Of a stretch of DNA of 64,000 bases, positions 1 to 61,252 are shown piece after piece. Source of the stretch: Candidatus Peribacteria bacterium (GTDB taxonomy: Bacteria > Patescibacteriota > Gracilibacteria > Peribacterales > Peribacteraceae). The translations under genes and the position numbers were made by a program. Position 1 is the stretch's first letter. The number at the start of each line of letters is the position of its first letter. Below the pieces are notes generated by a model that worked only from the letters and a program-made list of their open reading frames with translations, was not told the DNA's origin and did not search any database. The DNA lies in NCBI GenBank assembly GCA_018652265.1, contig JABICL010000034.1:31236-95235 (forward strand). Reading direction: 5' to 3'.

Positions 1-496
1 CACTTGGGATCCATCTATAAATCCAACATCTCTTATGAGGTGGATAGAGAGCAATGGAATACAATTTGGTTATCCAAAGATAAAAAAGTATGAGCAGGAT
101 TTTATTCCAGAGGACATTCAACACTTTTTTACTTACACAAGTAACATCAGTCTTCCTGCCAAAGTTTTATATCAAAATAAATTCTTGGAAGATGTTTCTA
201 TGTATGGATGGGAAGATATGGAATGGGGACTTAGATTAAAAGAAGAGGAAATAGATTTATTTTATGAGCCAGGAGCAAAAGCTTATCATCATCACCCATT
301 TACAAATCGTGAAATATGGGAGAGATCTAGATTAATTGGTGCTTCTGCAAAAGAAATAGAAAAAATGGTTCCAGGCGCTTCGTTCACTCCAAAAGGATTT
401 AAGCTAATTGCATATTTCCTGAATGCACTTCTGCCAACTCGTATGGGAAAACATAGAAGGCAGTTTTTGAAGGGAATATTTAGTGTGTCATCCTGA
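1..496 (+). CDS. Glycosyltransferase family 2 protein, C-terminal part (5' truncated by window)
   Basis: Frame open from window start; motifs FFTYTSNISL, YGWEDMEWGLRL, AYHHH typical of GT2; stop TGA lies inside the palindromic repeat at 485. Confidence 0.8.
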   Translation, partial: TWDPSINPTSLMRWIESNGIQFGYPKIKKYEQDFIPEDIQHFFTYTSNISLPAKVLYQNKFLEDVSMYGWEDMEWGLRLKEEEIDLFYEPGAKAYHHHPFTNREIWERSRLIGASAKEIEKMVPGASFTPKGFKLIAYFLNALLPTRMGKHRRQFLKGIFSVSS

Positions 497-574
497 GGAG
501 TCCGCCCACAGGCGGACGTCTCGAAGGACATAACATGCTTCGAGATGTCGCTTCACTCCTCCTCAGCATGACAC
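485..574. repeat. Inverted pair of TGTCAT(C/G)CTGAG...TCGAAG(G/C)A palindromic elements (family B)
   Basis: GTGTCATCCTGAGGAGTCCGCCCACAGGCGGACGTCTCGAAGGAC (485-529, +) and GTGTCATGCTGAGGAGGAGTGAAGCGACATCTCGAAGCAT (574-535, -) between convergent genes. Confidence 0.85.
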
Positions 575-6336: not shown

Positions 6337-6378
6337 GTCGTTCATACGCTGCAAAGACTCCGCTCGCTCGCTACCCGA

Positions 6379-6474
6379 TGTCATGCTGAGCCACCCTGAG
6401 AGAGCGAGCACTTGAAGCAGAGCGACGAAGTCGCGATGCTTAAGTCTCGCGAGTCGAAGGGTGTGTCGAAGCAC
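6379..6474 (+). repeat. Nested family B palindromic element
   Basis: TGTCATGCTGAGCC[ACCCTGAG...GTCGAAGGGT]GTGTCGAAGCAC; close relative of 60488-60576. Confidence 0.85.
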
Positions 6475-6527
6475 TATTTTTCTTCTTTTAGTTATAAATC
6501 CTGCTACAAATTCGCTAGAATCAAATC

Positions 6528-11100: not shown

Positions 11101-11102
11101 TA

Positions 11103-11191
11103 TGTCATGCTGAGCCGTACTGAGCGAGTAGAACTGGAGGCAGAACGAAGTGAAGCCTCAGTTCTAGGAGACGAAGTACGTGTCGAAGCAT
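11103..11191 (+). repeat. Nested family B palindromic element
   Basis: TGTCATGCTGAGCC[GTACTGAG...CGAAGTAC]GTGTCGAAGCAT. Confidence 0.85.
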
Positions 11192-11289
11192 AGATATTTT
11201 GCTAGAGATTGGTTGTATAAGTTATAAATAAGTTGTACAAATATAGTTAGTCTCAGATTTCACGTTGTTCCTTACACAAGGGGATAGAA

Positions 11290-19349: not shown

Positions 19350-20545
19350 GTCGTCTTAATAACATTTATATATTGATTTACCATCCTCTCAACAGAAAAT
19401 CTTTCTCTAGCACTTTTTTCTCCATTTCTAGACAGTTTCTCCAAAACTTCTTCTTTCTGAATTTCTGTAATTGCAGCTTTAATTTTATTACTACTTCCTG
19501 CAGGAACAATAATTGAATCCTCCGAGGAGATATGCCTAGAGATTCCACATGCATCTGTACATATAGTAGGAATTCCTCGCATCATTGCTTCGGCAATCAC
19601 TAGTCCAAAAGGATCATTTTCTCTGCTTGGCAAAACCAGACAATCTATCCGATTATAAAATTCTTCTATATTGGGAATTGATTCCACAAGCTCAATTTTT
19701 TGCTGCCCACTTGTTTGTTTTTGTATATTGCAGCGAGAACAGGCTTTTATAAGCTTATTTCTCTCAGGTCCATTTCCAACTATCTCTAGCTCCACATTCG
19801 AAAGATCTTTTATGGCTTCTATAAGCAGATCTACTCCTTTGTCGTAAGTTAAGCGAGAAATACAGCCTATGCGGAAATTTCTAGCTTTCCTAGGGTGAAC
19901 ATTGTTGCTCTCCTCGACCGAGTCCGCCGAGGCGGACGAGTGGAGAGGCGCCTCTCGATTCAGCTCCTTGCTAGGAGCTTCACTCGAGGAAAGCCTTGTT
20001 TCCACTCCATTAGGAATAGAAATCACATCCTCCTCTCTCCACCCCATATCCAAATAAATATCTCTGCTCAGGTCAGATACCGTAACTGTAGTTGCTAGCC
20101 TGCTTAGTTTGCGAAGACGCGGAAGCCATGGATTCCACTTAAGCCATCTTCCTACTTTATCATGTTCGACCCAGATTACTTTTATGTTGTTTTGAATGCA
20201 CCACTCTGTGAGTAGAAGTTTTTCGCTTAGGCTCAACATGAAAACCGTGCTCAGTGTTCCGCGTTCCGCGTTCAGTGCTTCTATAAGCTTTTTCTTCATA
20301 CCTTTCTTCCGCCATAAGAAACTAATTGCATTCCACTTAGTAACTGGCGGGGGATCAATATTCAATTCTTTCATGCGGTCCGCGGTCCGCGGTCCGCGGA
20401 CCGCTCGTAATAGTGTTTTACAATCTCCCAAAAACTCAACTTCATAACCTCTCTCTCCCAGTCCTTTCATTAAACTCAGCGTCTGCACCTCCGCCCCGCC
20501 GAAACGAGATTCAAGTGGAAATCTGGTAAATAGGACTTTCTTCAC
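19316..20545 (-). CDS. Glycosyltransferase family 4 with three in-frame repeat insertions
   Basis: GGAEVQ, IPNGV, SRLTYDKG, DPFGLVIAEAM. Confidence 0.9.
   Translation of the reverse strand: MKKVLFTRFPLESRFGGAEVQTLSLMKGLGERGYEVEFLGDCKTLLRAVRGPRTADRMKELNIDPPPVTKWNAISFLWRKKGMKKKLIEALNAERGTLSTVFMLSLSEKLLLTEWCIQNNIKVIWVEHDKVGRWLKWNPWLPRLRKLSRLATTVTVSDLSRDIYLDMGWREEDVISIPNGVETRLSSSEAPSKELNREAPLHSSASADSVEESNNVHPRKARNFRIGCISRLTYDKGVDLLIEAIKDLSNVELEIVGNGPERNKLIKACSRCNIQKQTSGQQKIELVESIPNIEEFYNRIDCLVLPSRENDPFGLVIAEAMMRGIPTICTDACGISRHISSEDSIIVPAGSSNKIKAAITEIQKEEVLEKLSRNGEKSARERFSVERMVNQYINVIKTTNEKCTMKNVQ
19884..19994 (-). repeat. In-frame palindromic element (family A), 111 bp
   Basis: GCTTTCCT...AGGAAAGC termini; encodes LSSSEAPSKELNREAPLHSSASADSVEESNNVHPRKA. 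Confidence 0.9.
20247..20280. repeat. In-frame degenerate heptamer run
   Basis: gtgctca gtgttcc gcgttcc gcgttca gtgctt; peptide LNAERGTLS. Confidence 0.65.
20375..20404. repeat. In-frame heptamer run (GCGGTCC)n
   Basis: Encodes AVRGPRTADR; same unit as 38841-38870. Confidence 0.85.
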
Positions 20546-20722: not shown

Positions 20723-20728
20723 GCCGTC

Positions 20729-26400: not shown

Positions 26401-26415
26401 TATACTACCCCTCGT

Positions 26416-29301
26416 ATGATTAAAAAAATTCAAAACTATCTGTCACATGTATTTTTTCTGGCTCTGGTCGTATGGGGCATTTATGCAACGTTAGTGTTTT
26501 TGGGTATAGATGCACACATAGTTGTCCTTCTAGAAGATGAAGCATGGAAATCTATAGCTAAGGATATTCCACAAAAACAGGGGGAATTTCCTCCGGCTGC
26601 GTTTTTGAGAGGGTTAAATGCTCTAGTGCCTATGGTTCAGCATTTTATATCTAGAGCTAGACCATTTCTTGCTTACGGAGTGGTTAGTGCTTTAATTTAT
26701 TTGTTATATGTGTGTTATACAGTTCTTGTAAAGGGAAGGCTTTTTATAGATAAAAAGGTAAATGCTCTACATTTAATTATTTTATTCTTTGGAAGTACAT
26801 GGCTTGTATTTACTACTCTTTTTTATGTTGATGTTCCAAATTTACTTCCCAGTCTTATACTTGAGCCTTCAAGAGAGTCTTTAAATGATTCAGTTTCCGA
26901 AGAGGCATTTGTTGTATTAAAAGAAAATTTCAAGAGATTGGAAGAGTCTGGATGTATTATTCAAGATAAAGAGGGCAGAAAAACTGGAGCTGGAGCAAAT
27001 GCATACTGGTATCAGGGCATTTGTGTTCAGAAAGCATTCTTTACCAGAGTTATGTCTCAGGCTTTTATGCTTATGTTTTTGATATTGAATTTCCTTGTTA
27101 TAGGTAAATTCTTGCTTAAGCTTTTTAAGTTCAAGACATCAAAATTATTAGAATTTGCTATGAGTTTAGGTTTGGGTGCAGCAGGAGTTACTATGATAAT
27201 TTGGATATTGGCACTTATTAAGATTTTAAATTCTGCTACTGCATGGGTAGTTCTTATTGCTATTCCAATAATTGGATATCCGTATGTTTCTTATTGGATA
27301 AAATCAATTTTGCATTCCAACTGGAAATACAAAACATCATTCTTATCTGCAAAAAATATTATTATCTGGCTTCTTATTACATATCTAGCATTTAACTTCT
27401 TAACAGTTGTAAGGCCATTTCCTATTGGATGGGATGATCTTGGTAGATATATAAATGGGCCAAGACAAGTAAGTGTATTTGGCCATATTATTCCTGGAAT
27501 GCTTGCTGCACAGTGGGAATATCTAACGTCTTTGGGGTTTGTATTGTTTGGTTATTATTCAGCTTTTGGGGCAACACTTGCTCAGCAAATTAATTGGATG
27601 GCAGGACTTTTTGCAACATTTGCTGTGTTTATTTGTGCAAGAAGTGTTTTGGGTGATGGCAAAGGAATATTTGCTGCCCTCTTCTATTACACATTACCAA
27701 TGGCTGGTCATTTCTCGTTTGCAGATATGAAAACTGAGAATGCACTACTCTTTTATGGGGCGCTTGGTATTACCGCAGTTGTTATTTGGATAAAAAATAG
27801 AGAAAAAGAAGAGCAAGATGGAAATGGAATGAAGTGGTTGTTTGTTGCGGGAATTTTATTTGCTGCAGGAGTTGCTACCAAGCCTACGATTGTTCTTATG
27901 TTTCTTATGGCAGGAACCATGATTACATTCGATGTATTGGGAGTTTCTAGTGGTATAGGATCAATATTTCTTGGCACTCTTATACTTACAAAATCTAGGG
28001 CAATCAGCTTATCCAAGATAGCGGAAAAATTGGGGATACTAGACGTTTCATTGTTTAGTACTTTTGTGACTATCTCTCTCCTTGTGATTGGTGTTGCACT
28101 ATTTGTAATGCCACTTGTTTATTCAAGGAAAAAATCAAATACAAAAGCAAAACTTGCGGAACACAAGTTCTATTGGAAGAGCGTTATGGTTATTGTAGTT
28201 GGTTTTATGATTTTCTCGGGGCCATGGATGGTTAGAAATATGGGGGCTAATAAAATGATAAATGTGTCTGCATTACTTGGTGCGCCAAATACGATTACTC
28301 CTATGATTGTATATAGCGAAGAAATGCTTCCTGATAATGCTCCTGAAGGATCGAGATTTTTGCCTCCTGAATTGGCAGTAGATCCTGATCATGAAAGATG
28401 TATAGGTACTTCTGAGCAAGAAGAGTTAGATAGATATTGGGGATATGGTGCTGGATTTAGTCATTTCCTTAAATTGCCATGGAGAGTGATTATGAATGTA
28501 GATTCTCAGGGGTACTACCTCACAACTTCTCCATTATTACTTCTTGTTCCATTATTACTTCTGGCGCCAATCTTTTGGAGGAAGAGAATTCTTAGATTGA
28601 TATTCTGGGGGACACTTGCATATGTTTTCCAATGGATTCTCGCAGCCAGTGGTATCCCTTGGTATGGAATAGGAATGTTCCTTGGCCTTGCCATATGTGT
28701 TGAAGCTGTTTTATTTGGTTCAAAAGATAAGGCTTCCAGGATAGTAGGAGGGACTTTGTGTGTTGTTGCAATACTTATGGTCCTATCTCTTAGGCTTTGG
28801 CAATTTTCCATGCAAATGAATTTGCATGAGTATTCATGGGGAAAAGCTTCCTTTGAAGTGCTTAGAGAGATGACTATTCCTGATTACGATAATATTACAG
28901 AAAATGTTGTTGAGCTTTCCAAGAATAAGGAAACACCTTATCTATATAGGATGGGAACTTTTATAAGTTATTTCATTCCACGCAATAGGGAAATTATTAC
29001 GCTAAATGATAATCAGCTTGTCTTTTTTAATTGTATAAACCAAGAGGGAGATCATCTTCTTACTTTAAAGAGACTTAAGGCATTAGGATTTCATAGTATA
29101 GTTTTTGATACGAATACTGCGACCATAGAAAAAGATCAAAACGGAACTCTTCATCAGAAGGTAAATAATTTTATGGATTTTGCAAATGATGAAAGTACGG
29201 GAATTATATCTGTGGTGAATAATCCAGGAGGGGGGATTGCTTATATGATACTTCCGGAGAGCGTTGAGATTGATGAGGATGCTGTAGATGTAGAGGAGTG
29301 A
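26416..29301 (+). CDS. Large polytopic membrane protein, GT-C/PMT-like glycosyltransferase
   Basis: Many TM helices; PIGWDDLGRY acidic loop and KTE...K motifs resembling ArnT/PMT_2. Confidence 0.6.
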   Translation: MIKKIQNYLSHVFFLALVVWGIYATLVFLGIDAHIVVLLEDEAWKSIAKDIPQKQGEFPPAAFLRGLNALVPMVQHFISRARPFLAYGVVSALIYLLYVCYTVLVKGRLFIDKKVNALHLIILFFGSTWLVFTTLFYVDVPNLLPSLILEPSRESLNDSVSEEAFVVLKENFKRLEESGCIIQDKEGRKTGAGANAYWYQGICVQKAFFTRVMSQAFMLMFLILNFLVIGKFLLKLFKFKTSKLLEFAMSLGLGAAGVTMIIWILALIKILNSATAWVVLIAIPIIGYPYVSYWIKSILHSNWKYKTSFLSAKNIIIWLLITYLAFNFLTVVRPFPIGWDDLGRYINGPRQVSVFGHIIPGMLAAQWEYLTSLGFVLFGYYSAFGATLAQQINWMAGLFATFAVFICARSVLGDGKGIFAALFYYTLPMAGHFSFADMKTENALLFYGALGITAVVIWIKNREKEEQDGNGMKWLFVAGILFAAGVATKPTIVLMFLMAGTMITFDVLGVSSGIGSIFLGTLILTKSRAISLSKIAEKLGILDVSLFSTFVTISLLVIGVALFVMPLVYSRKKSNTKAKLAEHKFYWKSVMVIVVGFMIFSGPWMVRNMGANKMINVSALLGAPNTITPMIVYSEEMLPDNAPEGSRFLPPELAVDPDHERCIGTSEQEELDRYWGYGAGFSHFLKLPWRVIMNVDSQGYYLTTSPLLLLVPLLLLAPIFWRKRILRLIFWGTLAYVFQWILAASGIPWYGIGMFLGLAICVEAVLFGSKDKASRIVGGTLCVVAILMVLSLRLWQFSMQMNLHEYSWGKASFEVLREMTIPDYDNITENVVELSKNKETPYLYRMGTFISYFIPRNREIITLNDNQLVFFNCINQEGDHLLTLKRLKALGFHSIVFDTNTATIEKDQNGTLHQKVNNFMDFANDESTGIISVVNNPGGGIAYMILPESVEIDEDAVDVEE

Positions 29302-29390
29302 TTAGTAGGTAGTGGGTAGTGATTAGTAGCAAAACAATATGTGGTACGTTGTGCAGCGTGCTAGCCACTAACTACTAACCACTAACCACT
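29297..29390 (+). repeat. Inverted heptamer-arm cassette (AGTGRKT / CACTRAC type)
   Basis: agtgatt agtaggt agtgggt agtgatt agtagca + core + ctagcca ctaacta ctaacca ctaacca. Confidence 0.8.
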
Positions 29391-29466
29391 TGTTCGTTCT
29401 TAAAATTCTTCAAAATATACAATTTATTCCATACATATCACCAATAATAGTTCTATACTTTATACT

Positions 29467-30137: not shown

Positions 30138-30515
30138 ATGGATTTTCAAATAACCCCATACATCGTAGTAGTGCCGCTCATAGCCTTTTTCTTTATAGTT
30201 TATGCATGGAACCACGTTATGCGTGGGACCAAGACTATATGGGAAGCAATACTTTGGTCGTTTTTCTGGGGGTGCATCGCAACTATAGTTCTTTTCCCAG
30301 AATGGATAGGCTTTCTAACATCATGGACTGGGATAAAAGATCAAGAGAATGCAATATTTGCTATAGCAATTGGAATAATCCTTTTTATCGTTTTCCAAAT
30401 AATTATAAGAATGGAAAATATGCAGAAGCAAATTACAGATTTGGTGAGGCATGATGCTATTGAGGATTCGGGACTAACAGAGTCAGATGCTGTAACAAAT
30501 AGCACAAACAAGTGA
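30138..30515 (+). CDS. DUF2304-like small membrane protein
   Basis: Three TM helices plus C-terminal QITDLVRHDAI; usual partner of DPM-like GT2. Confidence 0.7.
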   Translation: MDFQITPYIVVVPLIAFFFIVYAWNHVMRGTKTIWEAILWSFFWGCIATIVLFPEWIGFLTSWTGIKDQENAIFAIAIGIILFIVFQIIIRMENMQKQITDLVRHDAIEDSGLTESDAVTNSTNK

Positions 30516-30603
30516 GTAGTGAGTAGTGGGTAGTGATTAGTAGCAAAGCAATAGGTACGCGATATGTAACCCACTGACCACTGACCACTAACCACTAACC
30601 ACT
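30511..30603 (+). repeat. Inverted heptamer-arm cassette (second copy)
   Basis: agtgagt agtgagt agtgggt agtgatt agtagca + core + cactgac cactgac cactaac cactaac. Confidence 0.8.
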
Positions 30604-30608
30604 CGTAC

Positions 30609-31808
30609 ATGAAAACCATTCTACTCATCTCCCCCTATTGGAAAGAGCCGCATCGTTGGATGGTAAGTTCTGTAAAACTTGCAGAGCTTTGGCAAAGAAT
30701 GGGATATAAAGTAGTTGTTGTATGTATGGGGGCGAAAACAGAGAAAGAAGTAGTCTCGGAAACTCTCACTATTTATAGGGTGTGGGATTTCTTTTTGCCA
30801 GACCCTTTAAACTATGGAATATCTCCAGGATTTTTCTTTAAAGTTTTAAGGGTTTTAAAAAACGAAAAGCCAGACATCGTAATTGTAAATAAGATTCTTT
30901 TCTGGACTTCTTTGATTGTTCCTTGGCTTAGAATTCTTGGAAAAAAGCCAATCGTTACTACGGATGCACTTGTAGGAGTTACCTGGCAGCCTAGAGGAAT
31001 AATTCCAAAAGTCATTATGTCTATTGGAGGATGGACGGCTGGATGGAAAGTAATGCTTTTTGCCAAAAAATTAGTATTTTTTCATCCGCAGCCGGATAAG
31101 ATTTTGAAAATGATGGGGGTTTATGGAAAATCAATTGTGATTCCTACGGGGATAGATAGTCGAGCTTTCCTTAACAAGCTCTCCTCGAGTGAGTCCGCCA
31201 GCGGGCGGACGAATCGAGAGGCGCCTCTCCACTCGTCCGCTAAAGCGGACTCGGTCGAGGAGAGTTACAATATTCATGCGAGGAAAGCTCAAACCGTGAC
31301 TTATGTTGGACGATTAGAATCTGTAAAAGGTGTAGATGATTTTCTCGCAGCGACAGTGCCTCTAAAAAAAGATTATCCAGATCTAAATATTCAAGTTGTT
31401 GGATATTGTAAGCCAGGGAATACGATCGTAAGGCAATATGAAGGTAGCGTGAAATTCACAGGATTGCGTGATGATATTCCAGAGATTCTAAGTAGCTCAG
31501 ATATATTCGTCTTACCAAGTTATAGTGAAGGCCTTAGTAATGCTCTCATGGAAGCTATGTCTTCTAGGTGTGCATGTATTGCTACCGGTGTAGGCGGTAA
31601 TAAATATTTAATAGAAGACTCAGTATCTGGATTACTATTTAAGCCAGGGGATATCGAGGCTCTTAGATCTCATGTAAGAAGCCTGATAGACAATCCTTCA
31701 AGGATAGAGGGATTAGGAAATGCAGCCAGGGCCCGCATAGAGGATATGTTTGACTGGAGCGTAATCGAGAGTAAATATGCTGAACTTTTTAACGAGCGGG
31801 CCAATTAA
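30609..31808 (+). CDS. Glycosyltransferase family 4 with in-frame palindromic insertion
   Basis: IPTGID, YVGRLESVKG, SEGLSNALMEAM. Confidence 0.9.
   Translation: MKTILLISPYWKEPHRWMVSSVKLAELWQRMGYKVVVVCMGAKTEKEVVSETLTIYRVWDFFLPDPLNYGISPGFFFKVLRVLKNEKPDIVIVNKILFWTSLIVPWLRILGKKPIVTTDALVGVTWQPRGIIPKVIMSIGGWTAGWKVMLFAKKLVFFHPQPDKILKMMGVYGKSIVIPTGIDSRAFLNKLSSSESASGRTNREAPLHSSAKADSVEESYNIHARKAQTVTYVGRLESVKGVDDFLAATVPLKKDYPDLNIQVVGYCKPGNTIVRQYEGSVKFTGLRDDIPEILSSSDIFVLPSYSEGLSNALMEAMSSRCACIATGVGGNKYLIEDSVSGLLFKPGDIEALRSHVRSLIDNPSRIEGLGNAARARIEDMFDWSVIESKYAELFNERAN
31162..31290 (+). repeat. In-frame palindromic element (family A), 129 bp
   Basis: GAGCTTTCCT...AGGAAAGCTC termini; encodes AFLNKLSSSESASGRTNREAPLHSSAKADSVEESYNIHARKA. 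Confidence 0.9.
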
Positions 31809-31882
31809 CAATGTACAATGAAAAATGAATAATAAAGGAAATCTTCCATAATTATTCATTGTTAATTATTAATTATTCATTA
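31802..31882 (+). repeat. 81-bp 5x7/core/5x7 cassette
   Basis: caattaa caatgta caatgaa aaatgaa taataaa GGAAATCTTCC ataatta ttcattg ttaatta ttaatta ttcatta. Confidence 0.85.
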
Positions 31883-32835: not shown

Positions 32836-32842
32836 CGACGAG

Positions 32843-32923
32843 AAATGAACAATGAATAATTAACAATGAATAATAAAGGAAATCTTCCATAATTGTTAAT
32901 TGTACATTGTTCATTGTTAATTA
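32843..32923 (+). repeat. 81-bp 5x7/core/5x7 cassette
   Basis: aaatgaa caatgaa taattaa caatgaa taataaa GGAAATCTTCC ataattg ttaattg tacattg ttcattg ttaatta. Confidence 0.85.
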
Positions 32924-32976
32924 GCATGTTCCACTAATGAACACTCAATGAGTTGTTTTGCTGTAATATATCAATC

Positions 32977-34239: not shown

Positions 34240-34965
34240 TTAAATATTTTTCACAATCTCTTCAGCCCTCTCAAGAGCCTCAAAAGTCCCTGCGTCTATC
34301 CAGTCCTTTTCGATAACAGTAGCAGTTAATTCGTTGCGATCTAGATATGCCTTGCTTACATCTGTAATTTCTAATTCTCCACGATCAGATGGATTAAGAG
34401 TTTTTATAATCTCAAAACAATCTCCTGCAAACAGATAACATCCAGTCACTGCTAAATTAGACTTCGGGGTTTCAGGTTTCTCTTCAAGCGATATCACTTC
34501 ACTGATCGCGGATCGCGGATCGCGGATCGCGGTTTCTGCTACTCCAAATCTCTCTGGATCATCTACTTCTTTTAGAAATAGATGTCCTCCATTTCCTTCG
34601 AAAGCTTTTATATCTTCAGATAAATTGTTTGCGAAAATATTATCGCCAAGCATGGCACACACAGGCTCTTCGTCTGCAAAAGATTCTGCAAGTGCCAGAG
34701 CATGAGCTATTCCTTTTGGCTCATCCTGAATTCTGTATGTGAAATCACAACCAAACTTTGCTCCAGATCCCAAAAATTGCATAAAGTCTCCTGCGAATGT
34801 GGGGCCTGTAATTAGCATAATATCTGTGATTCCTGCATCTAGTAGAACTTTGAGTGGATAGTGAATAAGTGGCTTGCCACCGACCTTTAGTAGACTCTTG
34901 TGAGTAGTGTCTGTAAGAGGCTTGAGCCTAGTTCCCGATCCGCCGCAGATAAGAATTCCTTTCAT
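34240..34965 (-). CDS. rmlA: Glucose-1-phosphate thymidylyltransferase-like sugar nucleotidyltransferase
   Basis: MKGILICGGSGTRLKP, LGDN, EEKP, RGELEITD, WIDAGT; the extension to 35097 in the ORF track is repeat-derived. Confidence 0.85.
   Translation of the reverse strand: MKGILICGGSGTRLKPLTDTTHKSLLKVGGKPLIHYPLKVLLDAGITDIMLITGPTFAGDFMQFLGSGAKFGCDFTYRIQDEPKGIAHALALAESFADEEPVCAMLGDNIFANNLSEDIKAFEGNGGHLFLKEVDDPERFGVAETAIRDPRSAISEVISLEEKPETPKSNLAVTGCYLFAGDCFEIIKTLNPSDRGELEITDVSKAYLDRNELTATVIEKDWIDAGTFEALERAEEIVKNI
34504..34531. repeat. In-frame (GATCGCG)x4
   Basis: Encodes AIRDPRSAI in the hairpin turn between FGVAE and VISLEEKP. Confidence 0.9.
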
Positions 34966-35015
34966 AGTGTCGACATTATAACACTCCGCTCGCGTGCTTA
35001 AGGTGGTATTTCGCT

Positions 35016-35122
35016 TAGGTGGGAGCCAAGTCGCTCTCCTCGAGTGAGTTGTGCTGCCTCTCGACGTCCGCCTGTGGCGGACGCTCGAGGAAAGCACAAC
35101 GAATCGAGAGGTGTCGAAGCAT
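35016..35122 (+). repeat. Intergenic compound A-in-B element (5'-truncated relative of 42210)
   Basis: TAGGTGGGAGCC-AAGTC-GCTCTCCTCGAGTGAGTTGTGCTGCCTCTCGA...GAATCGAGAG-GTGTCGAAGCAT. Confidence 0.85.
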
Positions 35123-38401: not shown

Positions 38402-39454
38402 GTGACATTACTGTTCATAACACAGAAATTACATCAGCAGGATGCTTTCGTATCTCTGTGGGTTCGTGCATTTATGAGGCGCGGATATACGGTAAAAGTT
38501 TTGTGTTTAGAAAACAAATTAGATGTCACTTCACGTAAAGATGCTTCGCATCCACGTGACATGGATTTCGAAATATATTCGATGGGCAAAGAAAAGGGTT
38601 ATGGAAGAATTCGTCAAATATTAAGATTTTTGAAATTTATTTGGTCTTTGAAATATAATTCAGTATTTGTGCATATGGCTCCAATATATGGCGCACTTGG
38701 ATCTTGGTTTTGGATTATAAAAAGAATTCCTGTGTATCTTTGGTATACACACTACAAAAGAAGTTTCTCTATGAGAATTGTAGAGAGGTTCGTAAAAAGA
38801 ATTTTCTGTGCAACTTCTCAGAGTGTTCCATGGCTAGAGAGCGGACCGCGGACCGCGGACCGCGGACCGCAACTTCCAATATATAAAAAGGTAGTTGTTG
38901 GTCATGGTATTGATCTAAGTTTCTGGAAAAAGAAAGAAAACATCACGTCTAATCCAAGGGAATTGCTCGTTGTGCATAGATTATCCAGATCTAAGCGTCT
39001 AGAAATAAACATTAGAGCAGTAAAACTTCTTCCAGAGGATTACACTATGGTGATCTACGGCATAGAAGCCGAAAAAGATTATGTTTCTGAGCTTAAGCAG
39101 CTGGTTAAAGACCTAGGTCTAGAATCTAGAGTTAAATTTGTGGGTACTACACCTATGAATACTCTTCCTGAGATATATAGTTCGCATAAATTAATTTTAA
39201 ACATGGCATCGGAAACGATAGATAAGACAATGCTCGAATCTATGACATGTGGGTGTTATCCAGTAACAACACATGCGAATTCGGAGGCTATTGGTATATC
39301 CGAATCTCCAGGATCAGATACTCCAGAGGCAGTTTCTAAGTTTGTGCAGGAATTTCAGGGGGTGGATGCAGATGAGTTGTATAGAGTTGTGGCAGAGAAT
39401 CACGGTTTGGAGGGGTTAATCGAAAAGATGGATAAATACATTAAGCCAATTTAG
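38402..39454 (+). CDS. Glycosyltransferase family 4 with two in-frame repeat insertions
   Basis: GHGID, HRLSRSK, DKTMLESM. Confidence 0.85.
   Translation: MTLLFITQKLHQQDAFVSLWVRAFMRRGYTVKVLCLENKLDVTSRKDASHPRDMDFEIYSMGKEKGYGRIRQILRFLKFIWSLKYNSVFVHMAPIYGALGSWFWIIKRIPVYLWYTHYKRSFSMRIVERFVKRIFCATSQSVPWLESGPRTADRGPQLPIYKKVVVGHGIDLSFWKKKENITSNPRELLVVHRLSRSKRLEINIRAVKLLPEDYTMVIYGIEAEKDYVSELKQLVKDLGLESRVKFVGTTPMNTLPEIYSSHKLILNMASETIDKTMLESMTCGCYPVTTHANSEAIGISESPGSDTPEAVSKFVQEFQGVDADELYRVVAENHGLEGLIEKMDKYIKPI
38523..38562. repeat. In-frame palindrome ATGTCAC...GATGC-TTC-GCATC...GTGACAT
   Basis: Encodes DVTSRKDASHPRDM; GCGAAGC mini-hairpin on the - strand. Confidence 0.6.
38841..38870. repeat. In-frame (GCGGACC)x4
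   Basis: Encodes SGPRTADRGPQ. Confidence 0.9.
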
Positions 39455-41563: not shown

Positions 41564-42061
41564 ATGTCACACATTCACGAAACTGCCATAGTCTCATCTG
41601 ACGCTACTCTTGGAGAGGGGGTTAGCATTTGGCACCATACTGTTGTGCGTGAAAATGTAAAAATAGGAGACAATTGTGTGATAGGAGGTAATGTTTACCT
41701 AGATGAAGGAGTTGTTATTGGAAACAATGTAAAAATACAAAACAATGCATGTATTTATAGAAAAGCTGTTATAGAGGATGGAGTTTTTATAGGTCCTGGT
41801 GCGATGATCATAAATGACAAAGTGCCACGAGCTGTAACTCCAGATGGAAAGCTAAAAGATGCTAGCGAATGGGAATGTGGAACCGTTACTGTAAAGCGCG
41901 GTGCTGCGATTGGTGCAGGAAGTATTATCTTGCCGGATATTACTATTGGTGAACGCGCAATGGTTGGAGCTGGAGCAGTAGTAACAAAAGATGTTGCAGA
42001 TAAAATGCTAGTAGTCGGAAATCCAGCTAAAGAACATGGGAATGCTCCGGATGCTTCTTAG
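41564..42061 (+). CDS. Left-handed beta-helix N-acetyltransferase (WbpD-like)
   Basis: Hexapeptide repeats, IWH, VKIQNN, NDKVPRA, GNPA. Confidence 0.88.
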   Translation: MSHIHETAIVSSDATLGEGVSIWHHTVVRENVKIGDNCVIGGNVYLDEGVVIGNNVKIQNNACIYRKAVIEDGVFIGPGAMIINDKVPRAVTPDGKLKDASEWECGTVTVKRGAAIGAGSIILPDITIGERAMVGAGAVVTKDVADKMLVVGNPAKEHGNAPDAS

Positions 42062-42209
42062 ATCTCCGCTCGCATGCTGAATGTTACATATTGAGCCGAA
42101 ATTTCGCAGGGCTATATTTCTAAATCTTTACATTGTATTTGCAAATCTAAAGTGATCTCTGCTGACAAATTTCTTACTCAATATGCAACCTGCATGCTTG
42201 CTACTAATA

Positions 42210-42386
42210 TGTCATGCTGCCTGCCCGCCGAAGTCCGCCGCGGCGGACGTAGGCGGGAGCCAAATAGCTTTCCTCGAGTGAGTTGTGCTGCCTCTCGACT
42301 TTCGCCTGCGGCGAAAGCTTCCTCCTTCGCTAAAGCTACGGACGACAGGCGAGGAAAGCACAACGAATCGAGAGGTGTCGAAGCAT
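42210..42386 (+). repeat. Multiply nested compound palindromic element
   Basis: Family B ends split by a CCTG-hairpin (42220-42257); contains a family A element that is itself interrupted by a second CCTG-hairpin (42320-42349). Confidence 0.9.
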
Positions 42387-42394
42387 TATTTGCA

Positions 42395-43135
42395 TTAACC
42401 ATGCTCTTTCTTGAATTTATTATCCAATTCAGCACGTTTTTCTAATGCCCTATTCAAATTATCTATAGCTTTTGTACATTTTTCAGGAGAAATATTAGCA
42501 ATTGCAGAAATTTTATCTGCTTGAGTTTCGCCATTTGCAAACCACCATATTGGATGAGAGAGAAATTGGAAGCTTTTACCTTCTTCTATCAAATCAAGTG
42601 GCGTTTTTTCTCGCCACTGCATTGAGCTATCCGACACATATGCAAATTGTGATCGAATTTTTTCGCTATATGCTTCGTTTGTAATTAAATTTTCAATGTT
42701 TAGATGAAGACTATTAGTTGGATCATGTTGAGCGGCAGATGAAACTTGCTCTCCGATTAGATCAGACAACATCTGCATGTCTTTTGTAAAATCTTTTTCA
42801 TATTCCTCTGGATTATATTTGCTAGTGTCGTAATGCAATCCTATTTCGTGTCCTAAATTTTGCATGTGTTGAATTTGCTCTTTTCCAATATCAGAAAAAG
42901 GATCATAAAATTCATTTTCTGGAATTACGAAGTAAGTAGAAGAGATTCCAAGCTCGTTTTCTAGTTCTGCCATTTGAACTGCATATTCCAAGGAAAAATC
43001 GATGTCGTGACGTAGGAGTAATACAGGATCAGATTTGCTTGTAATAGCATCCTGCATAGGCAGAATGGTAAATTTGGTGGAAAGCGCTTTTTCAATCAAG
43101 GCGCGATATGACGTAGGATTAAATGAGATATTCAC
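42395..43135 (-). CDS. Polysaccharide deacetylase-like protein
   Basis: LLRHDIDF, HEIGLHYD, LSHPIWW. Confidence 0.65.
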   Translation of the reverse strand: MNISFNPTSYRALIEKALSTKFTILPMQDAITSKSDPVLLLRHDIDFSLEYAVQMAELENELGISSTYFVIPENEFYDPFSDIGKEQIQHMQNLGHEIGLHYDTSKYNPEEYEKDFTKDMQMLSDLIGEQVSSAAQHDPTNSLHLNIENLITNEAYSEKIRSQFAYVSDSSMQWREKTPLDLIEEGKSFQFLSHPIWWFANGETQADKISAIANISPEKCTKAIDNLNRALEKRAELDNKFKKEHG

Positions 43136-45147: not shown

Positions 45148-46268
45148 GGATTTGTTCCATAGTTTCTGCTCGGCCAAATTTTGTGAAGCTCGCAGGCGTG
45201 GTGCATGCATTCAAGTGTCATGCTGAGGAGGAGCGAAGCGACGTCTCGAAGCATAAACACTTCATAATCCACACAGGCCAACACTCAGATCCTTTGTTTT
45301 CTGACATCTTCTTCAAGGAACTTGATATTCCAGATCCAGATTATAATTTGGGCGTAAAGAGTGCAGGAAATAATGAAGAAACTATCAAAGCAACTTCCGA
45401 AGCTTGCGTCGATGCTCTGAAAGATGCAAATCCTGATGTTGTTTTGGTTTACGGAGATGTATCTGGAGCACTTGGTGGCGCACTTGCTGCAAAAGAAATT
45501 GGAATTCCAGTTGCTCACGTCGAAGCAGGGCTTCGGTCAGGTGATATGGATATGCCAGAAGAAAGAAATAGAATAGAAATAGATAAAATTGCTAAATATT
45601 TATTTGTTACTGAAGAATCAGGACGAAAGAATTTAGAAAAAGAGGGGATAGAGGGAGAGGTTCATTTTGTGGGCAATACGATGATAGATACTTTGATTCG
45701 GATGCAGAAAAATGTGTTTGATTTCAAAAGACCATTTGATTATCCAGATAAATTTGGATTGGTAACTTTGCATCGTCCAAGTAATGTTGATTCAAAAGAT
45801 AATCTGAAGAAAAACATAGATTTTCTAAACGAAGTTGCAGAAAAAAAAGAATTGATATTCCCAATCCACTTAAGAACCAAGTCTGCACTAGAAAATTATA
45901 ATCTATATTCAAAATTATCTGACAAAATAATAAAAAAAGACCCGCTAGGGTACATAGATTTTCTAAAATTAATACATTTATCAGATTTTGTACTTACAGA
46001 TTCGGGAGGCATTCAAGAAGAAACCACTTTTTTGGGAGTTGAATGTTTTACTCTTAGGAAAAACACTGAGCGCCCAGCTACAGAGAGTAAAAATGGTGGG
46101 ACAAATCATTTGATAGATATAGATAAAAAGGAGGGCAAGGATTTAGTACTAGAATTTGCTGAGGAAAATATAAATTACAACGAAAGATCTATGAGACTAA
46201 TGGATGGGAAAGGCCCTGAAAACTGGGACGGAAAAGCGGGAGAAAAAATCATAAAAATTCTAACTTAA
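45144..46268 (+). CDS. wecB: UDP-N-acetylglucosamine 2-epimerase (non-hydrolysing; WbpI-like)
   Basis: ARPNFVK, HTGQH, HVEAGLRS, MPEERNR, TDSGGIQEE, TERP. Confidence 0.9.
   Translation: MRICSIVSARPNFVKLAGVVHAFKCHAEEERSDVSKHKHFIIHTGQHSDPLFSDIFFKELDIPDPDYNLGVKSAGNNEETIKATSEACVDALKDANPDVVLVYGDVSGALGGALAAKEIGIPVAHVEAGLRSGDMDMPEERNRIEIDKIAKYLFVTEESGRKNLEKEGIEGEVHFVGNTMIDTLIRMQKNVFDFKRPFDYPDKFGLVTLHRPSNVDSKDNLKKNIDFLNEVAEKKELIFPIHLRTKSALENYNLYSKLSDKIIKKDPLGYIDFLKLIHLSDFVLTDSGGIQEETTFLGVECFTLRKNTERPATESKNGGTNHLIDIDKKEGKDLVLEFAEENINYNERSMRLMDGKGPENWDGKAGEKIIKILT
45215..45254 (+). repeat. In-frame family B element
   Basis: GTGTCATGCTGAGGAGGAGCGAAGCGACGTCTCGAAGCAT encodes CHAEEERSDVSKH; 2 mismatches to the intergenic copy 574-535. 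Confidence 0.92.
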
Positions 46269-50184: not shown

Positions 50185-51435
50185 TCAAGTTTGAAAAAAC
50201 TTTAAATAATTTTCTATCTGTTTTTCTAGAGAAAACTTTTCTTCAATGAGTTTTCTGCCTGCCTTTCCCATTTCTATTGCTCTATTTCGATCAGAAAGTA
50301 GGTAGTCTAATTTTTTTGCAAATGTTTTAGTATCAAATGGATCTACGATAAATCCGGTTTGCTCATCTAGAATCAATTCTTTCGATCCTCCATAGTGAGT
50401 TGCAATTACTGGCTTTCCAAGTGCCATAGCTTCTAGATTTACAGTAGGAAAAGAGTCAAAGCATATAGATGGGGTAACACATATGTCACAATTAGATATT
50501 GCTTCTATGAATTCTTTTCTCCTGAGCTTTCCTGTGAATTTTATTTTGTCTACCAAATCTTCTGAATGTCTATATTTATTTGTAAGAGCTTCTGCTTTTG
50601 ATTTATCTCCTGCAATTACAATTGATGCCTCTGGATGAGAGCTTTTGATGAGTCTAAAAGCATCAAGTAGCTGATATAAGCCTTTGTCTCGGTTCATTCG
50701 ACCTCCGAAGAAGATAGTTTGTTTATCTGAGGCTTTCCTCGAGTGAGGCTCTTCGCAAAGAGCTGAATCGAGAGGCGCCTCTCCACTCGTCCGCCTGAGG
50801 ACGGACTCGGTCGAGGAGGGCAGATCTATGCCATTGTAAATTACATCATCAATTTCTATGCCATTTGCTTCCAATGCATCTTTTAGCGCATGGCTTACTG
50901 CTATTTTTACATCTACTTTCTTAAGAATGCGTTTTATAAAGAAGTTTCTTAGTGGATTCCAAAGTATTCCAGCTTGTTTTATGTGATCTATGAAACTTAG
51001 TTTGTAATTGAAGTTTTTTAGATATTTATCCGTTGCAAGTCTTCCATAAGAAAAGCTCATTACGTCATGAAATGTGATTACAACTTTTTTTGCATGCTTC
51101 TTTGCAATTTTCAGTGAATTATATGTAAGAAGCTGATGCACATTATGTGCATGGACAATGTCATATGATCCATTTTCCTTGAAAAACTTTTTTATAAGCT
51201 TAGAAGCTTTAGGATTCCAAATACTTAAGTAAGCTCTCCATCTCGAATCATAAGATATTGGTATATATGAGATTTTGTATGGACTACTAATCGCTAATCG
51301 CTTACCGCTAATCGCTGTCAAAACATCTACCTCATGTCCCTGCTCAACATACCCTTCAGCAAGTTGAGATGCTATTTGCCCTGCTCCTCCATCACAATTT
51401 GGAGGGAAATCATCATTTAGAATTAAAATTTTCAT
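50185..51435 (-). CDS. Glycosyltransferase family 4 with two in-frame insertions
   Basis: GGAG, HAHN, IYNGID, GGRMNRDKG, DSFPTVNLEAM. Confidence 0.9.
   Translation of the reverse strand: MKILILNDDFPPNCDGGAGQIASQLAEGYVEQGHEVDVLTAISGKRLAISSPYKISYIPISYDSRWRAYLSIWNPKASKLIKKFFKENGSYDIVHAHNVHQLLTYNSLKIAKKHAKKVVITFHDVMSFSYGRLATDKYLKNFNYKLSFIDHIKQAGILWNPLRNFFIKRILKKVDVKIAVSHALKDALEANGIEIDDVIYNGIDLPSSTESVLRRTSGEAPLDSALCEEPHSRKASDKQTIFFGGRMNRDKGLYQLLDAFRLIKSSHPEASIVIAGDKSKAEALTNKYRHSEDLVDKIKFTGKLRRKEFIEAISNCDICVTPSICFDSFPTVNLEAMALGKPVIATHYGGSKELILDEQTGFIVDPFDTKTFAKKLDYLLSDRNRAIEMGKAGRKLIEEKFSLEKQIENYLKFFQT
50732..50821 (+). repeat. In-frame family A element, opposite orientation relative to the host gene compared with the other GT4 copies
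   Basis: GCTTTCCTCGAGTGAGGCTCTTCGCAAAGAGCTGAATCGAGAGGCGCCTCTCCACTCGTCCG...GGTCGAGGAGGGC; read as PSSTESVLRRTSGEAPLDSALCEEPHSRKA. Confidence 0.9.
51287..51316. repeat. In-frame (CTAATCG)n run
   Basis: ctaatcg ctaatcg cttaccg ctaatcg; encodes AISGKRLAIS. Confidence 0.8.
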
Positions 51436-56427: not shown

Positions 56428-58332
56428 ATGACAAATAATGATACGTACATACTTGGCCTCTCCTGTTATTACCATGATAGTGGTGTTGTACTACTTAAAA
56501 ATGGAGTAATAGTTGCAGCTGCTCAAGAAGAGAGGTTTACCAGAAAAAAACATGATGATGGATTTCCATCCGAAGCAATTTATTATTGCTTAGAAGAGGC
56601 TGGAATTTCAAAAGCTGAACTTAACTATGTGATTTTTTATGATAAGCCCCTTTCGAAGTTTGAAAGGATTTTGATGACTACTATAGATGCTTGGCCAAGG
56701 GGATATAGGCAAATGCTTCAGTCTCTATCACTTTGGCTTAGTAAGAAGCTATGGATGAAACAGCAAATTGCGAAAGAATTAGATTTTGATGGAGAAATAT
56801 TATTCTCGGAGCATCATATGTCTCATGCAGCCTCTACATTCTTTAGTTCAGCATTTTCCGATTCTGCAGTTGTAACTCTAGATGGAGTAGGAGAGTGGGA
56901 AACTACTGGAATAGGATATGGTTCTACTTCGCAAGCTATGCAGAATGCCTCGAATTTATGTTTAACACATGTTATTCATTTCCCTCATTCTCTAGGACTT
57001 TTGTATTCAGCGGTTACTGGATATCTGGGATTCAAGGTAAATAGTGCAGAGTACAAAGTAATGGGACTAGCTCCATATGGAGTAGTAGATGGGAACCCAG
57101 AGAAGTATATGCCAGCTATGCGTAAGCTTATAGATATAAAAGAAGATGGAAGCTATAAGCTGAATATGAAATATTTTGCATATGAATATGGTCTAAGGAT
57201 GACAAATAGACATTTTCATAAGCTTTTTGGGGGTCCACCTAGAAAAGCAGAGTCAGATCTTGAGCAAAAGCACAAAGATATAGCGGCAGCATTACAAATG
57301 ATTACAGAAGAAGCTGTTATGAAGATAGTTCGATATGCTTACAAGCTGCATCCAAGTGAAAATCTATGTCTTTCCGGAGGAGTCGCACTAAATTGTGTAG
57401 CTAATGGAAAAGTTCTCCGAGAAGGACCATTCAAAAATATATTTATACAACCAGCTTCTGGGGATGCAGGCGGAGCACTAGGTGCTGTTCAGTATCTTTG
57501 GCATGCAGTACTGGGTAATCCGAAGACGCAGGAGACTTGTATGAAGAATGTTTACTTTGGACCGGAGTTTGAAGATCAAGAGATTGAAAAGTATTTACTA
57601 CAGTATTCTAGGCAAACAAGCTTTCCTCGAGCGAGTTGTGCTGCCTCTCGACATTCGCCTTCGGCGAATGCTCGAGGAAAGCACAACGAGTTGAGAGGCA
57701 ATGAACTTAAATGGAGAAAATTTGGTAGCAATGAGGAATTAACCGAGGAAGTTTCCTCTCTAATAGATGGAGAAAATGTAATTGGATGGTTCCAAGGTCG
57801 AATGGAATTTGGTCCACGGGCACTTGGCAATAGATCGATAATTGCAGATGCAAGGAGAAAGGAAAATTGGCAGAAAGTGAATCTAAAAATTAAGTTCAGA
57901 GAATCTTTTAGACCTTTTGCACCTTCTGTTCTAGAAGAGCGTGCGTCTGATTGGTTTGAATTAGATGTTCCAAGTCCTTATATGTTACTTGTCGCAGATG
58001 TAAAAGAAGAGAAGCGTGCAGAAATACCTGCGATAACACATGTAGATGGATCTGCTCGAATACAAACTGTAAATAGAGAAGAGAATTCTGTTTACTATGA
58101 CCTCATAAAGAAATTCTACGAGAAGACAGGATGTCCTGTAGTTATAAATACGTCGTTTAATGTTCGTGGAGAGCCTATAGTCTGTTCTCCTAAGGATGCA
58201 TTGTATTGCTTCTTAAATACAGAGATGGATTATTTGGTTATGGGATCTTATGTTCTTGCGAAGAAAGACAATGTGCATCTAATAGATTCTTCTCTTAGAG
58301 ATAAGTATCTTGATGCATTCGATCTAGATTAG
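56428..58332 (+). CDS. Carbamoyltransferase (NodU/CmcH/SxtI family) with two in-frame insertions
   Basis: YYHDS, AAAQEERF, EHHMSHAAS, EYKVMGLAPYG, GRMEFGPRALGNRS, RESFRPFAP, NTSFN. Confidence 0.95.
   Translation: MTNNDTYILGLSCYYHDSGVVLLKNGVIVAAAQEERFTRKKHDDGFPSEAIYYCLEEAGISKAELNYVIFYDKPLSKFERILMTTIDAWPRGYRQMLQSLSLWLSKKLWMKQQIAKELDFDGEILFSEHHMSHAASTFFSSAFSDSAVVTLDGVGEWETTGIGYGSTSQAMQNASNLCLTHVIHFPHSLGLLYSAVTGYLGFKVNSAEYKVMGLAPYGVVDGNPEKYMPAMRKLIDIKEDGSYKLNMKYFAYEYGLRMTNRHFHKLFGGPPRKAESDLEQKHKDIAAALQMITEEAVMKIVRYAYKLHPSENLCLSGGVALNCVANGKVLREGPFKNIFIQPASGDAGGALGAVQYLWHAVLGNPKTQETCMKNVYFGPEFEDQEIEKYLLQYSRQTSFPRASCAASRHSPSANARGKHNELRGNELKWRKFGSNEELTEEVSSLIDGENVIGWFQGRMEFGPRALGNRSIIADARRKENWQKVNLKIKFRESFRPFAPSVLEERASDWFELDVPSPYMLLVADVKEEKRAEIPAITHVDGSARIQTVNREENSVYYDLIKKFYEKTGCPVVINTSFNVRGEPIVCSPKDALYCFLNTEMDYLVMGSYVLAKKDNVHLIDSSLRDKYLDAFDLD
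56922..56945 (-). repeat. In-frame 24-bp GTA/GAA-type mini hairpin
   Basis: - strand TTCTGC-ATA-GCTTGC-GAA-GTAGAA; resembles 42320-42349. Confidence 0.5.
57620..57699 (+). repeat. In-frame family A (nested subtype) element
   Basis: Closely similar to intergenic copies at 35033 and 42267; encodes SFPRASCAASRHSPSANARGKHNELRG. Confidence 0.92.
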
Positions 58333-60478: not shown

Positions 60479-60487
60479 AATAAATAA

Positions 60488-60576
60488 TGTCATGCTGAGC
60501 CATTCTGAGAGAGTGAGCACTTGAAGCGGAGCTTGCGACGCTTAAGTCTCACGAGACGAAGAATGTGTCGAAGCAC
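60488..60576 (+). repeat. Nested family B element overlapping the GT2 C-terminus
   Basis: TGTCATGCTGAGCC[ATTCTGAG...CGAAGAAT]GTGTCGAAGCAC. Confidence 0.88.
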
Positions 60577-61252
60577 TAATGCCTACTCGTATCTTAAGCA
60601 TCATCAGTATTCCTTTTACTGCGTCTTTCCAGTTTATCTTTTTCCCTTCTTCTATGGTTCTAGGGTTATAAGAGATTGGAACTTCGAGAATTTCTTCTTT
60701 GAGCTTTAGGCACTTGGCACATATTTCTGCTTCCATCTCAAAGCCATTAGATTTTAGGTTTAGTGATTTAAATAAATTTGTATCTAGTAATTTGTAGCAT
60801 GTATATGAATCTGTAATTCTTTTAAAAAATAGAATGCTAATAATTAAGCTAAGAACTTTATTGCCCATTAGGAATATCAAATACGCTCTTGGATTTTTTT
60901 GCATGAACCTTGATCCAAAAACCACTTTTACATTTTTTTCTTTTGCCTCTTTTAGAAGTAGTAGCATTTCTGATGGTTCATATTCCAGATCCGCATCTTG
61001 TATCACCGAATATTTTCCAGTTGAGTGTTCTAGTCCCATTCTGATTGCTGATCCCTTTCCTCCATTTGGCTTTGTAAGAACTAAATCTTGCTCTCGGGCG
61101 TTCTGTTTAAGTATTTCTAATGAAGAATCATGTGATCCATCATCTATATATATAATTTGAGCTTCTGGGCATGCATTACCAACAGTCCGCATAACCTGAG
61201 CTACGGTTTTTTCTTCGTTGTAGACGGGGATAAGTATGGATAGCTCTTTCAT
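60542..61252 (-). CDS. GT2, polyprenol-phosphate sugar synthase-like
   Basis: IPVYNE, DDGS, QDADLEY, EGKKINWKD. Confidence 0.9.
   Translation of the reverse strand: MKELSILIPVYNEEKTVAQVMRTVGNACPEAQIIYIDDGSHDSSLEILKQNAREQDLVLTKPNGGKGSAIRMGLEHSTGKYSVIQDADLEYEPSEMLLLLKEAKEKNVKVVFGSRFMQKNPRAYLIFLMGNKVLSLIISILFFKRITDSYTCYKLLDTNLFKSLNLKSNGFEMEAEICAKCLKLKEEILEVPISYNPRTIEEGKKINWKDAVKGILMMLKIRVGISASTHSSSRET

Follow-up and report, generated by a model that had tools for sequence, protein, structure and literature searches.

How does a single intergenic stretch of 177 nt come to hold several families of short palindromic repeats, one within another, and has the resulting composite been copied as a unit? 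The question is posed by positions 42210-42386 of a 64-kb segment of genomic DNA (the window, i.e., the whole stretch analysed), a locus with unique genes on both sides. The initial annotation had described here an element of one family (B) enclosing an element of another (A), both of them split by hairpins that carry a CCTG tag (the inserts called T1 and T2 below), and had pointed to a second, less complete copy as a record of the order of events. The evidence reviewed below leads us to favor, with a probability of about 0.55, the view that these repeats are non-autonomous, structure-defined mobile palindromes that insert into each other and into tolerant linkers of genes, in the manner of REP sequences, Rickettsia palindromic elements, and the palindromes of organelles.

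The window and its host

The window is AT-rich (33-42% GC per 2-kb bin, approximately 37% overall), with a positive GC skew nearly throughout, so that one strand is G-rich. It encodes housekeeping proteins (SecA, UvrB, AspRS, S6, MetK, and a class A PBP), along with a long polysaccharide locus containing many glycosyltransferases. A search with SecA returned proteins assigned to Peribacteraceae, Peribacteria, Peregrinibacteria, or the “Patescibacteria group” at 63-68% identity (22 organism-named entries among the 120 matches listed), and the best of the matches listed was 85% identical. A search with the carbamoyltransferase of the window agrees, if less cleanly, and the host is taken here to be a Peregrinibacteria-like CPR bacterium. 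A self-BLAST of all 64 kb revealed 24 non-self repeat pairs connecting unrelated loci. What is said here on copy number, recent activity, and target preference of the repeats is based on this 64-kb window.

Architecture of the composite and its sister copy

All the motifs described for the locus are found at the positions claimed, and the reading of a B element that holds an A element, with T1 and T2 inserted in addition, is borne out (Table 1). Family A spans 42267-42375 overall, T2 included, while the left end of B is interrupted by T1 in this composite and truncated in the sister composite at 35016. The B right end carries TCGAAGCA, which occurs nine times versus 1.9 expected, seven of the nine occurrences being at B right ends. 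Folded as single-stranded DNA, the composite reaches -43.9 kcal/mol (z -3.95), with none of 200 shuffles as good.

Table 1. Coordinates of the repeat elements in the window, with strand and the evidence or context of each.
Feature	Positions	Strand	Evidence or context
Two facing simple B copies	485..574	485-531 +, 535-574 -	Fold z -6.35
B with inner B-like core	6378..6476	+	Homologous to 11102-11193 and 60487-60578
B with inner B-like core	11102..11193	+	Homology, paired changes
A-related double unit	19883..19996		In frame in GT4 ORF 19316-20545, residues 184-221; 90% identity to 50822-50730
A-related double unit	31163..31290		In frame in GT4 ORF 30609-31808, residues 185-228; fold z -8.11
Sister composite without T2: T1 remnant 35016-35023, AGCC 35024-35027, A 35033-35111, B right end 35112-35122	35016..35122	+	
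Family B left terminus, first part, TGTCATGCTG	42210..42219	+	Sequence; uninterrupted at 6379, 11103, and 60488
Insert T1, 38 nt, splitting the B left terminus	42220..42257	+	Sequence, fold
Remainder of B left terminus (AGCC) and 5-nt spacer ahead of A	42258..42266	+	Sequence, alignment
Family A left part, apex hairpin 42300-42316	42267..42319	+	94% identity to solo A, 57619-57668
Insert T2, 30 nt	42320..42349	-	30-column gap in both other A copies
Family A right part	42350..42375	+	Within 37/37 match to 35086-35122
Family B right terminus, ending in TCGAAGCAT	42376..42386	+	Recurrence of TCGAAGCA
Simple 40-nt B	45215..45254	+	95% identity to 574-535
A-related double unit	50730..50825		In frame in GT4 ORF 50185-51435, residues 204-236
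Solo family A	57620..57698	+	In frame in carbamoyltransferase ORF 56428-58332, residues 398-424
B with inner B-like core	60487..60578	+	Homology, paired changes

The proposal that B and A were copied together is well supported, the two composites matching far above chance: 42350-42386 is identical to 35086-35122 (37/37, E 5e-16), and 42250-42313 is 89% identical to 35016-35079 over 64 nt (E 2e-15). The left part of A is also shared with the solo copy (42266-42315 versus 57619-57668, 94% over 50 nt, E 2e-16), and the A element of the composite is a mosaic, its left half (from 42267) being closest to the 57620 copy and its right half identical to the 35016 copy. Both composites stop exactly at the B right terminus, with homology absent past that point. 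On the left, homology begins 8 nt inside T1, the last 8 nt of which are retained in the sister copy, and this copy does represent, as had been suggested, the composite without its last insert (T2) and truncated on the left. In a three-way alignment, T2 is a gap-free 30-nt indel between GCT and CGAGG, from which both 35033-35111 and 57620-57698 are free. As the T1 remnant is present in both composites, T1 or a T1-like insert must predate the duplication of the composite, and as T2 is present in only one, it must postdate the duplication; the order of events originally put forward is the one recovered here. Direct reading of the junctions gives a target duplication of 0 nt at T2 and of at most 1 nt (an ambiguous G) at T1, in agreement with the earlier impression that none was evident.

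The CCTG-tagged inserts

T1 and T2 share a layout and lie in opposite orientations. T1 consists of CCTG, a 6-bp GC stem, GAA, an inner 7-bp hairpin, GTA, and the closing stem, and T2, read on the minus strand, consists of CCTG, a 6-nt arm, GTA, a mini-hairpin, GAA, and a closing arm (five of six pairs). Read on the plus strand, the sequence flanking each is GCT on the left and (C)GAG on the right (n = 2). T1 folds at -15.2 kcal/mol (z -3.69, 0/200 shuffles as good). The description of T2 as a hairpin is not supported, as on its own it has no stable fold (-3.2 kcal/mol, z -0.72, with 45 of 200 shuffles as good).

A script scan of the 64 kb for units of CCTG plus a closing stem found the two of this composite and none elsewhere. 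The condition that would have refuted the nested reading, sub-elements never seen independently, does not apply to A (solo at 57620-57698) or to B; for the tagged hairpins, independent copies are absent from the window. Neither does either insert have a source of at least 10 nt elsewhere in the window, direct or reverse-complement, which argues against local template copying, and an origin of T1 and T2 by a local template switch was rejected on this ground. A layout close to that of T1 and T2 (CCTG, GA, an identical inner hairpin, GT) is found in the core of a B copy, 489-527, and, judging by this likeness, T may be a minimal B core rather than a family of its own. That the CTGAG...CGAAG core might be a ribozyme, hammerhead-like or other, was considered separately and rejected, as the spacing does not fit and Rfam returns nothing.

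Family B: extragenic copies and one ancestral nesting

Family B is represented in the window by eight copies with both termini recognizable, the two composites included; the solo copies are those at 485-531, 535-574, and 45215-45254, plus three copies that enclose a second B-like core. In its simple form the element measures 40 nt; the outer stem is short, CTGAG on the left and TCGAAG on the right are conserved, and the interior is variable, the termini pairing over only about 5 bp. The interior is 13 nt at 45215, an 18-nt hairpin at 485 (with the common GTCCGCC/GGCGGAC hairpin at the apex of 485-531), a B-like core in the three copies with inner cores, and an A element in the composites. At 6378, 11102, and 60487 the inner core is flanked by its own complementary 5-nt flanks. 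These three copies are 74-83% identical to one another. Being homologous, the trio records one ancestral nesting, copied later, so of the claim of B nested within B at 6379, 11103, and 60488 the nesting stands and three separate nesting events do not. In a consensus fold of the trio, eight of the 29 predicted pairs have changed on both sides with pairing kept. Taken singly, some B copies show no advantage over shuffles in folding (60484-60582, z -0.91, 37/200 as good; 45215-45256, z +0.29, 120/200 as good).

B copies are extragenic or overlap gene ends: those at 6378, 11102, 42210, and 60487 come after plus-strand genes, and the facing pair at 485-574 fills a convergent spacer. Seven of the eight have the same orientation on the G-rich strand, from which no conclusion can be drawn, as most genes point likewise. 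At two places a B copy contributes to the end of a reading frame. The stop codon of ORF 2-496 (494-496) falls within the CTGAG of the 485 copy, and the last 11 residues of a GT2 ORF on the minus strand (60542-61252) come from the right part of the 60487 copy (60545-60577).

Family A: in-frame copies within enzyme genes

The solo A element is translated as 27 residues located between the Pfam N- and C-terminal domains of a carbamoyltransferase. The segment is missing from all nine other aligned homologues (9/9), and the closest orthologue found (P0002; 469/553 residues identical, or 85%, with 37 gap positions counted) has a 26-residue gap exactly at this place. As judged from the alignment, this gap is a protein-level empty site for solo A, and the only such site. 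The same protein has a second insertion, of seven residues (56923-56943), relative to all 10 homologues compared; this one looks like an ordinary indel, its DNA being neither GC-rich nor palindromic.

The other intragenic copies are A-related double units in three genes for GT4 glycosyltransferases. All three occupy one structural position, directly after a conserved NG(I/V)(D/E) motif, where a linker joins the two Rossmann-like halves, and they are found in both orientations relative to the host gene. The three host proteins are only 25.6-35.7% identical, while the inserts are 80-91% identical as DNA, and the left arm shared by the carbamoyltransferase and the GT4 copies is read in a different frame. 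Divergent hosts with similar insert DNA, read in differing frames, indicate that the thing conserved is the DNA and not the peptide. Each of the four intragenic copies of the A superfamily (4/4) keeps its ORF open, with normal domain matches on both sides. The double unit at 50725-50830 folds with a z of -1.82 (7/200 shuffles as good).

In the basic unit of the A superfamily, a variable hairpin forms the apex between a left arm that ends in CTCGAGTGA and the right arm GAATCGAGAGG. Family A corresponds to this unit with the apex swapped for a longer stem that encloses a shortened, inverted unit plus a hairpin; by this comparison family A already results from nesting, being derived from a simpler unit, and the 42210 composite is at least four levels deep, T1 and T2 not counted. 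Among the apex hairpins of the three A copies, two of eight stem pairs differ, on both sides each time, and none is broken. B, A, the double units, and T1 all carry the GTCCGCC/GGCGGAC stem at the apex, with differing loops.

Other repeats and structures in the window

Several further structures deserve mention. A 10-nt box, CTCCGCTCGC, is present in three exact copies (6358-6367, 34984-34993, and 42064-42073), each of them close outside the end of a gene, with a B-type element 20-150 nt downstream; when one mismatch is tolerated, shuffled sequences yield 0.7 matches on average, and three of 100 reach three. After the box at 34984 and 42064 comes a sequence resembling the B left end, (A/G)TGCT...GAGCC, interrupted by 24 and 14 nt, respectively, and the box may belong to a longer element of the B family. 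GC-rich heptamer tracts (GCGGTCC, GCGGACC, GATCGCG) lie in frame in ORFs at 20375-20404, 38841-38870, 34501-34544, and 20247-20276, giving two different glycosyltransferases a GPRTADR-like peptide; the heptamer unit is similar to the common GTCCGC/GCGGAC hairpin stem.

An exact duplicate of the 3' end of the tRNA-Leu gene (20 nt, 8975-8994) lies at 8855-8874, and the first part of the 100 nt in between (8875-8908) resembles a B core on the minus strand; the whole (8855-8994) has the appearance of a scar left where a small element integrated at the end of the tRNA. The 140-nt spacer between secA and a GT4 gene (20609-20748) is 63% GC and folds into nested hairpins (-40.9 kcal/mol, z -6.83); lacking both an Rfam match and a paralogue within the window, it might represent a further nested palindrome or an RNA of unknown type. 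A separate, AT-rich palindromic family of 80-89 nt with heptamer-like words (19267-19355, 31800-31882, and 32837-32925; 74-89% identity, self-complementary) occupies spacers right after gene ends. A direct repeat of about 99 nt with G/T-rich heptamer words (29297-29393 and 30511-30606, 79% identity) lies just upstream of gene starts, and approximately nine tandem copies of a 9-nt unit (26315-26413) lie between uvrB and a 961-aa ORF starting at 26416.

Searches beyond the window and for a transposase

Scanned against Rfam 15, the window has a sole match, a tRNA-Leu (8978-9061), with none of the repeat families at the gathering score, and in E-value mode the regions 42050-42420 and 6330-6500 returned only noise. 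The composite has zero matches in plasmids and phages (blastn, “distant” mode). An A-specific 20-mer matched a single public genome, a Solirubrobacteraceae assembly, and this match was put down to chance, as the features of the element are absent around it. The composite, translated into 60 aa, was compared by phmmer with 1.84 billion representatives, whose clustering at 50% would mask host proteins differing solely by the insert; no credible host protein was found, the sole match, a 4359-aa proline-rich repeat protein, being judged spurious. A word-indexed search (“longer” mode) with 44 aa encoded by the 31163 insert produced 14 candidates, of which the protein from the window itself was the only one to pass. 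Generic two-tier hairpins in the window number 32, versus 5-21 in 20 Markov simulations, a modest enrichment with nothing beyond the known copies, and the CGAAGC motif is seen 37 times versus 16 expected, about eight of the 37 within elements.

The tagged hairpins had suggested a search for an HUH (Y1) transposase. Among the 49 ORFs scanned in the window (out of 64 of at least 100 aa, the other 15 overlapping longer ORFs), none was recognized as a transposase, integrase, HUH/Y1, RAYT, or TnpA protein; nine of the 49 are without any Pfam family. A limited literature search found no description of repeats of this type in the Peribacteria/Peregrinibacteria lineage, which is not proof of their absence, and the paper on complete Peribacteria genomes (PMC4736985) does not contain the words “palindrom,” “transpos,” “mobile,” or “hairpin.”

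How the nested structures may have arisen

Four other explanations have to be weighed. One is growth in place: palindromes would arise from replication slippage, template switching, or hairpin-templated repair and be homogenized by gene conversion between existing copies, with no dedicated transposition. This we consider unlikely, while acknowledging that the paired changes in stems are expected from arm-to-arm correction, that the mosaic of the A element is typical of conversion, that the three GT4 inserts share one structural position, and that heptamer tracts related to the common hairpin stem exist within ORFs. The common position is a counterpoint to mobility in its own right, as it might reflect gene conversion among paralogues and not three insertions. 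However, conversion cannot place A into an unrelated carbamoyltransferase whose close orthologue is free of it, nor B into at least six unrelated spacers, and T1 and T2 have no nearby template of 10 nt or longer. Rather improbable, too, is a scenario centered on the tag, in which CCTG-tagged hairpins of 30-38 nt would be the minimal mobile unit, moved as single-stranded DNA by a REP/RAYT- or IS200/IS605-like HUH (Y1) transposase, with the tetranucleotide as the guide or the cleavage site. The common CCTG end of T1 and T2, their 6-nt closing arms, and the G(A/T)A triplets around an inner hairpin agree with it, as do the lack of target duplication at both inserts, their common GCT/(C)GAG flanks on the plus strand, the T-like layout of the B core at 489-527, and the co-orientation of seven of the eight B copies on the G-rich strand. 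This last point is weak, though, being confounded with gene direction, and the type is known from just two exemplars, both in one composite and with no others in 64 kb; T2 folds no better than shuffles, the 49 ORFs scanned include no HUH gene, and the A-type units within genes carry no CCTG tag.

That the repeats are selected structural elements (transcript-end hairpins, mRNA stabilizers, or protein-binding sites), with nesting a by-product of duplication, has a still lower probability in our assessment. It would agree with the location of B copies directly after or between gene ends (485-574, 6378, 11102, 42210, and 60487) and with a conserved structure showing covariation, but a simple terminator scan made no terminator-like call at the composite, Rfam offers no match, A-type units are found in coding sequence in both orientations relative to the gene, and the T inserts, too, are found in both orientations. 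Finally, assemblers can be misled by short repeats, and this appears to be an assembly from an uncultured organism, so a chimera of repeat copies has to be considered; it is, nevertheless, very improbable, as the element is just 177 nt long with unique genes on each side, its internal architecture is coherent and fully paired, and the intragenic copies leave long ORFs open between normal flanking domains.

The reading we prefer, of non-autonomous mobile palindromes, builds on direct observations: nested elements, families in several copies, clean indels without target duplication, independent copies of A and B, the exact boundary of the composites, the protein-level empty site, and changes that preserve the stems. 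A superfamily of short GC-rich palindromic repeats would be behaving as non-autonomous mobile DNA in an AT-rich genome, inserting, without target duplication, into spacers by gene ends, linkers within genes that tolerate it, and the helix junctions of copies already present. Within genes, only copies that are in frame and free of stops would survive, and insertion at the helix junctions of older copies would produce Russian-doll structures. For the composite, the likely sequence starts with an A element becoming the interior of a B element, after which a two-tier hairpin of the T1 type would have entered the B left end; the composite would then have been duplicated as a whole, from one B terminus to the other, with the 35016 copy later losing its left part, and T2 would have entered the A part of the 42210 copy. 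The spread would probably depend on an enzyme supplied in trans that recognizes hairpin DNA; the leading candidate is a single-strand HUH/Y1 enzyme, in keeping with hairpins that carry a tag and with the missing target duplication. Against this reading count the lack of any recognized transposase among the 49 ORFs scanned, the single empty site, seen at the protein level and with no DNA-level counterpart from another genome, the two exemplars of the T type, of which T2 folds like its shuffles, the copies at 60484-60582, 45215-45256, and 50725-50830, likewise classed as folding no better than shuffles, and the searches with element-encoded peptides, which turned up no further host proteins.

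The genomes of CPR bacteria are small and, in most accounts, streamlined. If the preferred reading is correct, dense self-nesting palindromes remodel spacers and add peptide linkers to enzymes of sugar metabolism in such a genome, and thus represent a source of genome and protein change parallel to the Rickettsia palindromic elements (RPE). The clean indels between paralogous copies also offer unusually readable junctions for the movement of tiny elements, a question that is still open for RPEs and for organelle palindromes. One may speculate further, and this we regard as doubtful, that a “tag plus two-tier hairpin” of 30-38 nt is a self-sufficient substrate for single-stranded DNA transposition in a reduced CPR genome, and that the B, A, and enzyme-linker copies were built by recursive self-insertion and moved by a single domesticated HUH-type enzyme. 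Such a unit, if real, would be among the smallest mobile DNAs known.

Comparison with known systems

IS200/IS605-derived palindrome-associated elements have subterminal hairpins, create no target duplication, use a fixed short target, and are moved by TnpA in trans. In the window, T2 has no duplication and T1 at most 1 nt, both inserts lie between GCT and (C)GAG (n = 2), and no TnpA was recognized among the 49 ORFs scanned; any relationship to these elements would be tentative. Classical MITEs possess terminal inverted repeats flanked by target-site duplications, unlike the elements described here, with duplications of 0 nt (T2) and at most 1 nt (T1) and B termini that pair over about 5 bp. 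The SDR repeats of Nostoc and Anabaena (Elhai et al., in 2008) are reportedly mobile, 21-27 nt long, with hairpin potential, and nested in each other and in larger repeats; they are cyanobacterial and of different sequences. MITEs in general, in the part of the source drawn upon, are short, non-autonomous, and multi-copy, and at times fused in frame to genes (PMC10969869).

Palindromes “inserted into one another” have been described from the organelles of Volvox carteri (PMC2670323). In contrast to the window repeats, those elements are organellar, AT-rich in mtDNA, and reported mainly from non-coding regions, and no tag motif is described for them in the passages considered (PMC2670323). REP and REPIN sequences, as presented in the sections used here, are short imperfect hairpins flanked by a conserved tetranucleotide; they are numerous, keep their stems through paired changes, often form inverted pairs, and are moved by RAYT (PMC3116915). 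The head-to-head B pair at 485-574 resembles a REPIN. The tag in the window, however, would be CCTG or CTG and not GTAG, and, in comparison with the REP hairpin plus tetranucleotide, we have two CCTG units in one composite, with one strong fold, and B cores that share CTG(AG); the 49 ORFs scanned include no RAYT gene, and four copies of the A superfamily lie inside ORFs, unlike the extragenic REPs.

Being in frame in four protein-coding genes, the A superfamily is closer to the RPEs than to extragenic REPs. RPEs, in the passages of the literature considered, are palindromic repeats of approximately 100-150 bp, found both in intergenic regions and, apparently tolerated, in frame in unrelated enzyme genes (PMC10969869; PMC3184786), and palindromic repeats in frame are a hallmark of RPEs that is shared by other bacterial repeats (PMC10969869; PMC3184786). 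The window has a similar combination, with in-frame copies in one carbamoyltransferase and three GT4 proteins and two composites in spacers, a likeness in location and palindromic form; none of the repeat families matches Rfam. It differs from the RPEs in the host, a Peregrinibacteria-like CPR bacterium and not Rickettsia, in the GC-rich composition of the copies within an AT-rich genome, and in the recursive architecture of about four levels. Overall, the window repeats fall within a known kind, short palindromic mobile repeats, and they are notable for the depth of their nesting and for the in-frame copies in a CPR bacterium.
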